Source of the DNA: a virus
Lineage: Duplodnaviria > Heunggongvirae > Uroviricota > Caudoviricetes
Length of the DNA stretch: 64,000 nucleotides
Reading direction: 5' to 3' (one strand)
Virus record (IMG/VR): IMGVR_UViG_3300037471_000830
In this document: piece by piece, positions 19,480 to 43,856 of the stretch
Position numbering within the stretch: the first letter of the stretch is position 1
Layout: each line of letters opens with the position of its first letter
Notes under the pieces: model-generated
Told to the model about the DNA's origin: nothing
Seen by the model: only the letters and a program-made list of their open reading frames with translations
Databases searched by the model: none
Program-made: the position numbers and the translations under genes

Positions 19480-20295
19480 ATGCAACTGAGCCCCAAAACC
19501 ATCGTCCGCAGCGCCATCGGTGGCGCTGCCGCCATCGTCGCGCTCAACCTCGCGATGGGCTCCTGGTTCATCACGCCGCCTGGTTATGTGTCCATCGTGA
19601 CCAACGCCGGCTCCGTGCAGTCCACGATCTACGAGGAGGGCTTGCACTTCAAGATGCCCTTCGTGGCGAAGGCTCACGACATCAACATCCAGGCGCTGAC
19701 CTACCAAAGCGCCGACGTGGATGCTGGTACGAAGGACTTGCAAGCGGTCAAGGCCAAGCTGGCGGTGCGCTACGTGGTGGACAAGCCCGACGCGCAGGAC
19801 GTGTACCGCAACTATCGCGACACGGAAACGCTGGTGTACCGCGTCCTGGGTCCGGCCGTCGAGGAGTCGTTCAAGGCCGTCGCCAGCAACTACAGCGCGG
19901 AGGAGCTGATCACCAAGCGCCAGGCCATGCGTGACGCCTTCATCGCCGCGCTGCGCACCAAGCTCAAGGACGGCTACATCAACGTGCAAGACGTGGCGGT
20001 CACGGACTTCGCGTTCGCCAAGGGCTACCAGGATGCGGTGGAAGCGAAGGTGACGGCCGAGCAGACCGCCAAGAAGGCCGAGCACGACCTCAACCGCATC
20101 CGTATCCAGGGCGAGCAGCGCGTGGCCCAGGCCGAAGCCGAAGCGAAGGCGATCAAGGCCCAGGCCGAAGCCATCACCAAGCAGGGCGGCGCGGAGTACG
20201 TCCAGCTCAAGTGGATCGAGAAGTGGAACGGCCAGCTTCCGCAGACCCAGCTCGGCGCCAACTCCAACATGCTGGTGAGCGTCGGCGCCAAGTAG
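19480..20295 (+). CDS. SPFH/band-7 (prohibitin/HflK-C-like) membrane protein
   Basis: N-terminal TM, SPFH core, long Ala/Glu/Lys coiled coil (AQAEAEAKAIKAQAEA) typical of band-7 proteins. Confidence 0.7.
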   Translation: MQLSPKTIVRSAIGGAAAIVALNLAMGSWFITPPGYVSIVTNAGSVQSTIYEEGLHFKMPFVAKAHDINIQALTYQSADVDAGTKDLQAVKAKLAVRYVVDKPDAQDVYRNYRDTETLVYRVLGPAVEESFKAVASNYSAEELITKRQAMRDAFIAALRTKLKDGYINVQDVAVTDFAFAKGYQDAVEAKVTAEQTAKKAEHDLNRIRIQGEQRVAQAEAEAKAIKAQAEAITKQGGAEYVQLKWIEKWNGQLPQTQLGANSNMLVSVGAK

Positions 20296-40955: not shown

Positions 40956-41162
40956 ATGGCTATGAGACCCAACATTCAACTGGACGAAAGCCACTTCCTG
41001 ACCGACAGCGGAATAGGCGACTACGAGCTGGTTTGCCGAGTCGCTGGACAACGCTATTTCGTGCCTCGCGTGGGAGAAAAGGCGTTCATCAGAAAGGAGC
41101 GCAGTTGTCCGCTGTGTTATCGGCGATTCCAACCTGAAAGCTCCGGCAAGGACAGCCCATGA
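40956..41162 (+). CDS. hypothetical small protein
   Basis: ORF track. Confidence 0.4.
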   Translation: MAMRPNIQLDESHFLTDSGIGDYELVCRVAGQRYFVPRVGEKAFIRKERSCPLCYRRFQPESSGKDSP

Positions 41163-41476
41163 CCACCTACGAGAACGCCAAGGCCAAGATCATCCACCGT
41201 CACGCCACAACCAAGGCGGACACCAGGAACGAGTTCTTCGGCTCCGTGCGCGAGGCGGTCTTGGCCGCCATCGCCATCACGGACAAGCCGGACAGGGAGC
41301 TGCGCACTGTGGCCCTGGAGCCGTTCGAGGACGACAAGGTGTCGCTCGGCAAGGGCGCCTTGTGGGACTACAAGTTCGACGACACGGAAAGTCTGTTCAA
41401 GCTCCTGGACAAGTTCGACGACATGCCGCCACCGCCGACCAACCCGGACAACTACAGCGCCTGGGGAGAGTTCTGA
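41159..41476 (+). CDS. hypothetical protein, paralog 1 of WGEF-tail family
   Basis: C-terminus ...NYSAWGEF; ATGA coupling. Confidence 0.55.
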   Translation: MTTYENAKAKIIHRHATTKADTRNEFFGSVREAVLAAIAITDKPDRELRTVALEPFEDDKVSLGKGALWDYKFDDTESLFKLLDKFDDMPPPPTNPDNYSAWGEF

Positions 41477-41784
41477 TGGTCGCCAAGGTCATGGTCCGCA
41501 ACCACGATTGGGGCGGCAAGGTCGAGTGGATCGAGCGCAACGACCCGAAGGACGCCATCCAGGCGGCTATCGGAATGCTGGATGCCTTCCGCACCACCAA
41601 CGGCAAGGTCGAGCCGATCCGGGTGTTCCTGAACTGGAACAGGGAGCAAACCAACTATGCGGATTGGGCTGAGGACGTGGACGGTCGAGACAAGCTGATC
41701 GAGCTGCTCGTGGAGCGCGGTGGTGAGTTCGTTCCATCGCCTAAGCAGCCGGCGCCCACCTATCCATCCTGGGGAGAGTTCTGA
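41476..41784 (+). CDS. hypothetical protein, paralog 2 of WGEF-tail family
   Basis: C-terminus ...YPSWGEF; ATG 41476 coupled to previous stop. Confidence 0.55.
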   Translation: MVAKVMVRNHDWGGKVEWIERNDPKDAIQAAIGMLDAFRTTNGKVEPIRVFLNWNREQTNYADWAEDVDGRDKLIELLVERGGEFVPSPKQPAPTYPSWGEF

Positions 41785-42050
41785 TGCCGACGCTGATCGT
41801 CCACGACCGGGTGTCATGCAAGATTCGTGAGTTCGCCTACAAGGACAAACGCACGGTCTTGGAGGCGGCGCTCGCCCTCATGGACAAGCCCGAGCCCCGG
41901 CTGGAGCCCAGGGCTATCTTCCTCACCAAAGGCGGTGGCAGAGATTGGGTCGCCGACATCGAGGGCAGGGAAGGGCTGCTGAGGATGCTGGCGGAACTGG
42001 ATAAGCCCCCGCAGCAGGCTACGAACTACGAAGCCTGGGGAGAATTCTGA
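41784..42050 (+). CDS. hypothetical protein, paralog 3 of WGEF-tail family
   Basis: C-terminus ...NYEAWGEF. Confidence 0.55.
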   Translation: MPTLIVHDRVSCKIREFAYKDKRTVLEAALALMDKPEPRLEPRAIFLTKGGGRDWVADIEGREGLLRMLAELDKPPQQATNYEAWGEF

Positions 42051-42071: not shown

Positions 42072-42407
42072 ATGCCAATGCGATCCAAGAAGCAAGACGA
42101 CCCTGCGGCTAAATCCGTGGACCTCATTCGCGTCACGGTCGCGGAAATGCCCGACGAAGATATTTCTGCACAGGTGACGATTTGGCCCGCCGCCTTGGCC
42201 GTCAAGCGCAGTGATGGCAAGGTGGAGATGCACGAGTGGGGCGTCGTGATGGCAGACATCGTGCGCTATCTCGCCAACGGCGCGCAGCAGGAGCTCGGCA
42301 AGCCCGAAGCGGAGACCATCAACGAGGTCGTGGAGACCATGCTGCGCGAGCTTCGCGCCCCTGCGACGGACGCCGCAATGCATGTGATGGGCGATCCGAT
42401 GCACTGA
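42072..42407 (+). CDS. hypothetical protein
   Basis: ORF track. Confidence 0.45.
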   Translation: MPMRSKKQDDPAAKSVDLIRVTVAEMPDEDISAQVTIWPAALAVKRSDGKVEMHEWGVVMADIVRYLANGAQQELGKPEAETINEVVETMLRELRAPATDAAMHVMGDPMH

Positions 42408-42454: not shown

Positions 42455-42736
42455 GTGCAGATCGAATACGACCCCGCCAAACGCCAAGCGACCTTGACTC
42501 ACCGTCAGTTGGACTTCAACGACGCGCCCAAGGTCTTCTCCAGTGCCGCTACCGTGGAATTGGAGGACGACCGCATGGATTACGGAGAGCGGCGCATCAT
42601 CACGTATGGACCGCTGAACGGGCGTCTGGTCATGATCGTCTGGACCCAACGCGGCGCCTTTCGCCGCATCATCTCAATGAGGTACGCCAATGATCGAGAA
42701 GTTGCCAGATACCGCACCCGCCTGGGTGGACCCTGA
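42455..42736 (+). CDS. brnT: BrnT-family (DUF497) ribonuclease toxin
   Basis: IEYDPAKRQATL..HRQLDF..APKVF and RRIITYG...GRLVMIVWTQRG...RRIISMRYAN..E match the DUF497/BrnT pattern (feWD.aK...N..KHGvsFeeA..vF ... RIISARkA). Confidence 0.7.
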   Translation: MQIEYDPAKRQATLTHRQLDFNDAPKVFSSAATVELEDDRMDYGERRIITYGPLNGRLVMIVWTQRGAFRRIISMRYANDREVARYRTRLGGP

Positions 42737-42926
42737 CGAGGCCCCGGAACTCACCGAGGAGGCGCTGGACGAGCTGTTCAAGAACGGCGTCTGGAGAGTC
42801 GAAGGACGCATCGTGAGCAAGGAGGAGGGGATAGCCGCCATGCGTCAGGCTCTTGCGAAAGACCCCTCCAGCCGGCCGCAGGACTTCGCCAAGCCGACGA
42901 ACTTCTCCAAGAAATACCGCCTCTGA
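42690..42926 (+). CDS. brnA: BrnA-like (DUF4415) antitoxin
   Basis: immediately downstream of and overlapping BrnT gene; DEAPELTEEALDE resembles DUF4415 N-terminal motif; alternative GTG start at 42726. Confidence 0.5.
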   Translation: MIEKLPDTAPAWVDPDEAPELTEEALDELFKNGVWRVEGRIVSKEEGIAAMRQALAKDPSSRPQDFAKPTNFSKKYRL

Positions 42927-42941
42927 GGGCGCCACAAAGCA

Positions 42942-42971
42942 AGGGCCAGGATCACCACCTGGCCCTTTTCT
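42942..42971 (+). terminator. rho-independent terminator (AGGGCCAGG-atcaccac-CTGGCCCT + TTTCT)
   Basis: 9-bp stem and T-run directly after brnA-like stop. Confidence 0.6.
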
Positions 42972-43856
42972 ATTGCACAAGCGGAATTGCATAAGCCCAC
43001 CCACCAGGCCAAGGACAAATTCCAAGTCCTGACAGCCACTTAGAGCAATCCGCATCCAGAATTCTGCTCAAAACCGCAGTTCTGAATCAGACCAGAACCC
43101 GCAGCGAAGCCCTCAGAAAATCACACCCCAGCAAAGCCCATAGAACCGGGCTACAAGCGCGCCAAAACGCCCGGGAGTACCACGACAGCACCGAACCCGG
43201 CAAATCGCGCATAGAGCGTTTAAAGGGCTCGTCTCCAAAAGCCCAGGCGGGACCGAACTTCCCGCGATCTTCTTCCACCAAGGAAAGCTTCAAAGCCAAG
43301 GCTGCTTCCCCAAGCCGTCGCCGTAAAGATCAAAAGCTCTTACCTTCTTCTCTATATCTATATCTTTACGCTGAGGGGTGGATTCCCCAAGTCCCAAACT
43401 TCCACGCCAAGAAGGAAGACCTCACCGGAATCAGGAACCAACGCCTCAGCTGGATCGGCCAGGAAAACCGTAAGCGAGAAGACCTCGGCGGAATCCAACA
43501 CGGAGAAGGACACGGAGAGAAGACTGGACAGGCATGGAGAGAAGATCACCGGAGAGAAGGATCAACCCATAGGCTCAATGTAGGGAGAGAAGGCTGGATA
43601 GATCAGGAAGCCCATGTGTTCGGCTGTAGAGCTGGATATGCCTAGGAATGCGCCTGACCGTTCTCTTTGGCTTTTCGCCTCTCTGCCCTGTTCACCCGTT
43701 TTCCACCTCTCCGCCCTGTTTTCCATCCCTTCACCCGTTTTCCATTGGGTTGCCTATCCTGAAAAACCTCACATCGCCGCCAATCCTTGCACAGCCTCAC
43801 CCCGCGCCAAGGAAAGCCAAGGACTGCCTACACTCAGCAGCCAGAGGGAGAAAGCC

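Follow-up and report, generated by a model that had tools for sequence, protein, structure and literature searches.

Toxins of the BrnT family are growth-arresting RNases that are neutralized in a complex with the cognate antitoxin BrnA, which also represses the promoter of the module (PMC11980606, PMC5086665, PMC10714953). Transcription of brnTA is controlled through the C-terminal ribbon-helix-helix (RHH) domain of BrnA, with the promoter bound either by BrnA alone or by the 2:2 BrnTA complex (PMC11980606; PMC10714953). BrnTA modules are already annotated in temperate phages (Burkholderia phiE202 and phi52237, Acidovorax Acica and Bordetella phages), where BrnT is a phage-borne accessory gene. 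Phages additionally encode orphan antitoxin-type counter-defense proteins, such as Dmd of phage T4, which acts against RnlA/LsoA, and the DarG-like antitoxins of T4-like and nucleus-forming phages (PMC11825919, PMC13309987). Here we analyze a pair of overlapping genes at positions 42455-42926 of a 64,000-nucleotide stretch of tailed-phage DNA (IMG/VR record IMGVR_UViG_3300037471_000830; hereinafter the window, at its full 64-kb length), which a preliminary description had taken for a toxin-antitoxin (TA) pair of the BrnT/BrnA type. The pair consists of a complete BrnT and a 78-residue BrnA derivative that lacks the RHH domain, and we favor, with a probability of about 0.58, its interpretation as a functional, non-autoregulated pair of a toxin and a neutralizer.

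The locus has in common with canonical BrnTA (2012; PF04365 plus PF14384) the toxin family, most of the residues reported to be required for activity, the toxin-first order of overlapping genes and a homologous N-terminal motif in the antitoxin. It differs in that the antitoxin is devoid of the C-terminal RHH, in that the toxin contains Arg rather than His at position 17 (as does its whole subfamily) and in that the module resides on a large phage, not on a bacterial chromosome. The phage-borne accessory BrnT is a feature shared with the temperate phages mentioned above, and the window BrnT is 59% identical to that of phiE202, whose partner overlaps the toxin gene by 41 nt. In contrast to the window protein, the partners in phiE202 (90 aa) and Acica (98 aa), the two that were scanned, are full BrnAs matching PF14384. 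Furthermore, the temperate carriers of BrnTA have genomes of 35-45 kb, with phiE202 and Acica belonging to the P2-like Peduoviridae, whereas the window phage is related to the RHEph10/nickie group with genomes of about 115 kb. The parallel with Dmd and the DarG-like proteins is that the phage carries the neutralizing component of a TA system, and a phage would have no need of DNA binding for autoregulation. Unlike those free-standing, toxinless genes, however, the window ORF (open reading frame) has an intact cognate brnT immediately upstream and overlapping it, and no host BrnT target is known for the window phage. In the literature that we found, BrnA is described in RHH or helix-turn-helix (HTH) forms only, and we found no description of an RHH-less BrnA, or of one next to an intact BrnT in a large phage apparently of the lytic type. 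The window locus is a rare form of a known system and not a new kind of system. Its features are as follows.

42455-42736, plus strand: brnT ribonuclease toxin gene, GTG start, 93 aa, family BrnT/DUF497 (PF04365)
42679-42683, plus strand: Shine-Dalgarno-like GAGGT, 6 nt before the antitoxin ATG and inside brnT, presumed to serve the antitoxin gene
42690-42926, plus strand: truncated BrnA-like antitoxin gene without RHH, ATG start, 78 aa, 47-nt overlap with brnT
42690-42866, plus strand: BrnA N-terminal module (WVDPDEAPELT..LDELFKNGVWRVEGRIVSKEEGIAAMRQAL), presumed toxin-binding, delimited by alignments to BrnA proteins
42867-42926, plus strand: non-conserved 19-residue tail, predicted to be disordered, and stop codon in place of the RHH; the tails of RHH-less relatives are mutually unalignable
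42941-42967, plus strand, with U-tract to 42975: intrinsic-terminator-like hairpin, 10-bp stem (7 G-C pairs), 7-nt loop, then UUUUCUAUU

The BrnT toxin and its shortened partner

The toxin assignment made in the preliminary description is borne out by a full-length match of the 93-aa protein to the Pfam model BrnT_toxin (PF04365; E = 8.6e-22; score 77.7 bits, threshold 34.5; residues 5-82 covering all 77 model positions) and by a match to phrog_4399, 'ribonuclease toxin of AT system' (E = 1.4e-28). A six-frame search of the window detected this BrnT as the sole one (42455-42736, 135.6 bits). Residue conservation was assessed against 118 homologues obtained by protein search. All 16 residues that are invariant in the subfamily (D6, K9, R17, L19, D20, R40, E45, R47, G52, R71, I72, I73, S74, M75, R76 and E82) are retained, as are all positions scored as invariant or near-invariant among the 118 homologues (D6, K9, R17, D20, D38, R40, Y43, E45, R47, G52, W63, R71, S74, M75, R76 and E82). 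The sole departures from the consensus at the level of at least 80% are G18Q, which is also found in 6 of the homologues, G30S, found in 5, and a one-residue insertion.

In B. abortus BrnT, the residues D6, E7, K9, K16, H17, R41, R72 and E78 are reported to be needed for RNase activity or toxicity (PMC5086665, PMC13284704). When mapped by alignment, the equivalents of D6, K9, R41 (R47 in the window protein), R72 (R76) and E78 (E82) are present, and E7, K16 and H17 are replaced by Pro, His and Arg, respectively. Of the homologues, 82% have Pro7 and 99% have Arg17, so that both represent the subfamily consensus; position 16 varies, and 22 of the 118 have His there. Members of this subfamily encountered in our locus survey are mostly paired with a full BrnA. 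The AlphaFold2 model of the toxin, built from 26 sequences, has a mean predicted local distance difference test score (pLDDT) of 92 and a predicted template-modeling score of 0.83, with secondary structure elements in the order E-H-H-E-E-E-E-H (E, strand; H, helix). The top and sole significant match of this model in a Foldseek search of the PDB is 7VD7_A (TM-score 0.77, probability 1.0), the BrnT-family toxin chain of a solved Salmonella TA complex, which is also the best PDB match at the sequence level; we found no paper citing 7VD7 in a literature search. The predicted fold is RelE-like, short helices packing against an antiparallel beta-sheet. Bacterial proteins with approximately 61-65% identity to the window protein are its nearest homologues; they come from Halomonas/Vreelandella, Azohydromonas, Methylocystis and many metagenome-assembled genomes (MAGs). 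From the family match, the conserved residues and the predicted fold, the ribonuclease toxin is taken to be intact and predicted to be active.

The identity of the downstream ORF is less straightforward. The preliminary description noted its BrnA-like start, and this part of the claim stands: the protein is a BrnA derivative. Homology to BrnA is limited to residues 1 to about 59, which comprise the N-terminal module and the linker. In BLASTP comparisons, the ORF is 66% identical to a canonical BrnA (locus L014) over residues 12-46 (E = 2e-14) and 45% identical to phiE202 BrnA (E = 2e-7). The residues M1, W12, D14, D16, A18, P19, E20, T22, D27 and F30 are common to the ORF and the canonical BrnAs aligned with it, and the W.DPDDAPELT motif of the N-module is present. 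Hidden Markov models (HMMs) of the N-module and of the RHH were built separately from 77 distinct canonical BrnA partners; the former matches the ORF with 45.7 bits (E = 2.5e-13). The similarity runs on through the linker, where 'VSKEEGIAAMRQALAKDP' in the window corresponds to 'VSSKEGKALAKAALRGRP' in one of the metagenomic relatives (L017). Beyond this point, canonical BrnAs continue into the RHH (RGRP..vsIRlD.dvl..FKa.G.GWQTRiN..L..wL), whereas the window ORF contains 19 unrelated residues followed by the stop codon, which comes some 20-30 residues earlier than in canonical relatives. Where those have the RGRP motif ahead of the RHH, the window ORF has AKDP.

What did not stand is the expected membership in PF14384. 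The preliminary description proposed both Pfam models as a check, and the second of them gave no match at E ≤ 10 with the 78-aa protein, for which no Pfam, NCBIfam, PHROGs or PADLOC match was obtained; in the same PF14384 scan, phage BrnAs scored 90.0 and 70.7 bits. The failure is accounted for by the missing RHH domain. Accordingly, annotation pipelines that rely on domain matches will report this BrnT as an orphan toxin. The RHH HMM detected nothing in the three frames downstream of BrnT, and nothing in six frames of the whole window (best score 6.3 bits, E = 0.48); nor was an RHH remnant seen when the three frames that follow BrnT were translated directly. Restoration of the RHH by frameshifting or readthrough was rejected for lack of an RHH signal in any frame, and so was a separate RHH gene elsewhere in the window, given the empty six-frame search. 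Moreover, the same protein, read from a later GTG start (P0001, 66 aa), is on record in 3 contigs, and the stop codon common to them makes an assembly error unlikely.

The AlphaFold2 model of the 78-aa protein alone has a pLDDT of 52, with two helices (residues 23-32 and 44-57) and a beta-hairpin between them (34-42); disorder is predicted for the N-terminus and for the tail (residues 60-78, pLDDT below 50). Such a model would fit an antitoxin segment folding upon binding but in itself proves nothing. In PDB searches with sequences and profiles, neither a BrnA nor a BrnTA complex was recognized. Two natural BrnT-BrnA fusions, P0118 and P0240, were considered as stand-ins for modeling the complex and dropped, both containing a truncated BrnT.

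Survey of BrnT loci and RHH-less relatives

To place the shortened partner in the context of the family, 142 BrnT loci were surveyed, comprising that of the window and loci from 80 bacterial genomes, from about 45 IMG/VR viral contigs and from other sources, by scanning the region downstream of each BrnT in three frames with the N-module and RHH HMMs.

N-module and RHH in one frame: 122 loci
N-module and RHH in one frame, contig ending soon after: 2 loci
RHH only, with a different N-terminus: 6 loci
N-module only: 5 loci (the window, L021, L052, L062 and L123)
N-module and RHH in different frames: 1 locus (L093), the only one that looks frameshifted
Neither N-module nor RHH: 4 loci

Among the five N-module-only loci, L021 has kept a degenerate RHH-like tail and in L123 the RHH lies beyond the scanned range; with these set aside, three are truly RHH-less. 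Every viral BrnA that was checked combines the N-module with an RHH, including the IMG/VR BrnAs found from the antitoxin side. In L052 (1727-2020) and L062 (1733-2026), both from Methylococcaceae MAGs, a BrnA-like N-terminus is followed by a helical C-terminus rich in Q, R and M in place of the RHH (97 aa). This arrangement, conserved in the two genomes, is a second kind of non-RHH BrnA.

Searches started from the 78-aa ORF itself gave a complementary view. A word-indexed search of 5.8 billion proteins returned only the ORF itself, and tblastn against phages gave no match. An exhaustive phmmer search of 1.84 billion representative proteins identified, as the best matches after self, the short RHH-less proteins P0242 (81 aa), P0243 (79 aa), P0244 (60 aa) and P0245 (73 aa). 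All of them have the 4-residue insertion seen in the window ORF (ELTDE-LLDR-MMEKGVW versus canonical ELTDEFFENGVW) and stop soon after 'EEG.AA.RQA.', with tails that are mutually unalignable. Together with P0251, P0260 and P0269, they contain the core WVDPDDAPELT...GVW.IG.R.VS.EEG.AA.RQA followed by a variable tail, as the window ORF does, and are 45-53% identical to it over the whole alignment and 48-62% over the matched stretches. Matches of the ORF to long repeat proteins (P0246 and the TPR protein P0252) were judged to be compositional or helical coincidence. Another phmmer match, P0259 (561 aa), contains about 7 tandem repeats of 'ELSERAMNEIMQKGVFVPGVWGDEVSR', which resembles the N-module core (ELTEEALDELFKNGVWRVEGRIVSK), either by chance or as a repeated toxin-binding-like unit.

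The short RHH-less relatives all reach a stop codon within their contig, and no frame provides their N-modules with an RHH; RHH matches at these loci came solely from complete BrnA genes that are separate from them, in L016 and L145. Their genomic contexts are diverse.

P0243 (L145): overlaps a BrnT gene by 41 nt
P0242 (L144): follows a BrnT C-terminus
P0251 (L159): follows a BrnT C-terminus
P0244 (L146): orphan, no BrnT
P0245 (L143): orphan, no BrnT
P0269, 80 aa (L160, 2278-2520; L161, 874-1116): third gene behind a HigB-like/HTH_3 (HigA) pair, 8-nt overlap with HigA, on three bacterial contigs
P0260 (L162): follows a gene that, from its sequence, reads as HicB-like
82-aa ORF (L016, 625-873): follows a complete BrnTA

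P0242, P0243 and P0251 overlap the BrnT gene in the same manner as the window ORF. Unlike the latter, none of the RHH-less metagenome and MAG proteins comes from a recognizable phage context, and several are orphans or stand behind other TA pairs. The comparison of L144 with L145 across the 56 codons of the N-module gives dN = 0.092, dS = 0.66 and dN/dS = 0.14 (nonsynonymous and synonymous divergence and their ratio), while the tails are identical only at the random level. At least in the L144/L145 lineage, the RHH-less N-module is under purifying selection. The L145 locus (1-2400 of a 2.6-kb metagenome contig) contains two BrnT-family modules, one with a type-2 RHH BrnA and the other with the RHH-less P0243, which flank three paralogous CCDC90-like (PF07798) membrane-anchored proteins.

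Gene layout and phage context

The toxin-then-antitoxin order indicated in the preliminary description is the family norm, with overlaps of 41-56 nt: the offset of the second gene is between -41 and -56 nt in most of the surveyed loci and -47 nt in the window. Close bacterial BrnT homologues (L010 and L012) are followed by a PF14384 BrnA of 88-93 aa that starts 50 nt before the toxin stop. The claim of a strong terminator making the pair a self-contained unit holds for the 3' end. The hairpin at 42941, the strongest terminator-like one in this region, begins 15 nt after the antitoxin stop codon, folds with a minimum free energy of -21.8 kcal/mol (z = -2.0 versus shuffles) and has the longest stem of the four terminator-like sites between 40.5 and 45 kb. 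Since it directly follows the pair, self-containment at the 3' end is supported; a promoter of its own is not, as a scan for sigma-70 promoters across 40.5-45 kb found no sites.

The pair lies within a run of small genes without known homologues, from about 36 to 48 kb. Ending 48 nt upstream of brnT on the same strand is a DUF5076 gene (42072-42407, plus strand; PF16826, E = 9e-9), preceded by three tandem paralogous small ORFs (41159-42050, plus strand; 105, 102 and 88 aa; 24-34% identity) with no Pfam or PHROG match. Each of the three ends with Y-x-[SA]-W-G-E-F immediately before the stop, after a proline-rich linker, and this ending resembles a short motif by which a partner protein would dock. 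Past the terminator, about 0.9 kb (42927-43850) contains no convincing gene, and the segment 42001-44000 has a lower G+C content and negative GC skew. Direct repeats are present in the gene-free part: CCYGTTTTCCAY three times at a spacing of about 20 nt (43695-43745), TTCACCCGTTTTCCA twice, and repeats of the GGAGAGAAG type at 43511-43601. An Rfam scan of 40-47 kb yielded nothing credible; 42927-43850 could be a regulatory or origin-like region.

The phage setting assumed in the preliminary description is confirmed by the genes for a DnaE-type polymerase, SbcCD, class I ribonucleotide reductase, large terminase and portal. The window has about 62% G+C, no tRNA genes and coding mostly on the plus strand. 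It also encodes a gp32-like protein, a FEN-type exonuclease, a RecA-like protein, ThyX, a UvsW-like helicase (minus strand), two ParB_N proteins and an ABC-type ATPase; between ribonucleotide reductase and ThyX lies a gene for an SPFH/Band_7 (prohibitin/flotillin-like) protein (19480-20295, plus strand; PF01145, E = 4e-29). Among cultured phages, the closest to the window are those of Rhizobium (RHph_N1_10, RHEph10 and others), Pseudomonas phage nickie and phages of Stenotrophomonas, with genomes of 108-122 kb, portals about 51-55% identical and DnaE about 41-43% identical to those of the window. The order UvsW (minus strand)/ParB/ParB/ATPase/TerL/portal is syntenic with RHph_N1_10. BrnT is absent from these cultured phages, RHEph10, RHph_N1_10 and nickie among them, so that the module is a lineage-specific acquisition, and a megablast search with 41.0-44.5 kb against the INPHARED phages gave no match. 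The same BrnT and BrnA-like proteins are on record in a JGI contig of 223,709 bp, probably the one from which the window derives. Given that the closest cultured relatives have genomes of 108-122 kb and are syntenic around the packaging genes, this contig could be a two-unit concatemer of about 112 kb rather than a true jumbo genome.

Mechanism, alternatives and significance

We propose that a large tailed phage gained a BrnTA module horizontally from Pseudomonadota and that the RHH domain, which in canonical BrnA dimerizes the antitoxin, binds the brnTA operator and represses transcription, was lost. What is left, the N-module with its linker, would wrap around the toxin and block its presumed RNase activity by direct protein-protein binding. 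That the N-module is the neutralizing part we infer from four points: type II antitoxins are in general modular, the module lies next to the toxin, purifying selection has kept it in relatives that lost the RHH, and it has the disordered character of a segment that folds on binding. With the RHH absent, neither autoregulation nor operator binding nor an RHH-mediated 2:2 tetramer is expected; neutralization would proceed without autoregulation, and expression would follow the transcription program of the phage. Transcription probably reads through from the co-oriented upstream genes, translation of the presumably labile antitoxin is probably coupled through its start inside brnT, and the unit would end at the hairpin at 42941.

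Several observations weigh against this proposal. The subfamily has Arg at the position of the important His17 of B. abortus BrnT, and the window toxin has Gln at the usually Gly position 18. The low confidence of the fold predicted for the 78-aa protein alone (the pLDDT of 52 given above) is another such point, and this ORF has no close homologue beyond itself, so that no selection estimate can be made for the gene. The dN/dS value comes from a single sequence pair, and the neutralizing role of the N-module draws on the general modularity of type II antitoxins, no solved BrnT-BrnA complex having been found that would show it. Finally, the BrnTs of the window and L145 are distant (mutual rank about 55 of 121). 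Toxin similarities do not support a single co-inherited clade of BrnT with RHH-less BrnA; the loss of the RHH, which may have occurred once or several times, may thus be recurrent decay rather than the mark of one maintained lineage.

An alternative explanation is that the module is decaying, with BrnA truncated by a deletion and surviving as a non-functional relic, and BrnT either acting alone as a phage RNase, which a virulent phage could tolerate in a host that dies anyway, or heading for loss. RHH-less partners are rare (about 3% of the surveyed BrnT loci), at least one locus, L093, looks frameshifted, and the ORF is a singleton among 5.8 billion proteins; moreover, its tail past residue 59 or so is non-conserved and predicted to be disordered, and AKDP stands where RGRP is expected. 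Against decay, the N-module is intact at all conserved positions and scores 45.7 bits, the family-typical start inside brnT is retained, and the nearest relatives are RHH-less as well, with the derived 4-residue insertion in common and an N-module dN/dS of 0.14. Furthermore, an unneutralized RNase produced from phage transcripts would also cut phage mRNA. On this balance, we regard decay as unlikely.

Less likely still is that the same mechanism serves addiction in a plasmid-prophage or carrier state, by killing cells that lose the episomal phage genome, as phd-doc of P1 does. The portal also resembles (54.7% identity) those of Klebsiella phage records of about 84-110 kb, which we take to be phage-plasmids; the window encodes two ParB_N proteins, one ParA-like and two ParB-like proteins are annotated in its relative RHph_N1_10 from Rhizobium, and the BrnTA of other phages is found in temperate P2-like genomes. 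However, virulent phages commonly have ParB_N proteins beside the terminase, the 64-kb window yielded no integrase, repressor or ParA, and the extensive replication module (DnaE, gp32-like, RecA-like, SbcCD, ribonucleotide reductase, ThyX and UvsW) is of the lytic-phage type. In addition, the BrnAs of the temperate phages that were examined (phiE202, Acica and the IMG/VR BrnAs) possess the RHH. As for the canonical, complete BrnT/BrnA pair of the preliminary description, with a DUF4415 antitoxin that binds DNA and autoregulates, the gene order, overlap and N-terminal motif fit, but it is refuted by the domain tests (no PF14384 match at E ≤ 10, no RHH in any frame, an ORF some 20-30 residues short with unrelated sequence after residue 59 or so) and we consider it highly improbable.

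Returning to the functional pair of toxin and neutralizer, what it would do for the phage can be suggested only tentatively. The role that we would place first is in phage-host or phage-phage conflict, with the antitoxin as a decoy neutralizer of host BrnT-type abortive-infection toxins and/or the pair excluding competing phages. Selfish or addiction-type persistence seems a weaker candidate, as does the lack of any current function, to which we give similar weight. It is doubtful that BrnT is a timed RNase released when early transcription stops. More speculatively, RHH-less BrnA N-modules might form a distinct family of stand-alone, neutralizer-only antitoxins, deployed by mobile elements against BrnT-type toxins next to BrnT, behind other TA pairs or alone; here, the module would disarm BrnTA-type abortive infection of the host and, through the toxin linked to it, direct a timed or competitive RNase at the host or at co-infecting phages. 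We consider this wider scheme a long shot.

Should the 78-aa protein indeed neutralize BrnT, the toxin-binding determinant of BrnA would be mapped to about 50 residues, and BrnTA would prove workable without its autoregulatory DNA-binding domain. A complete toxin combined with a neutralizer-only antitoxin in a phage would furthermore offer a compact model of the repurposing of TA systems under viral transcription control, be it as a decoy against host TA defense, as a weapon or as a selfish passenger.

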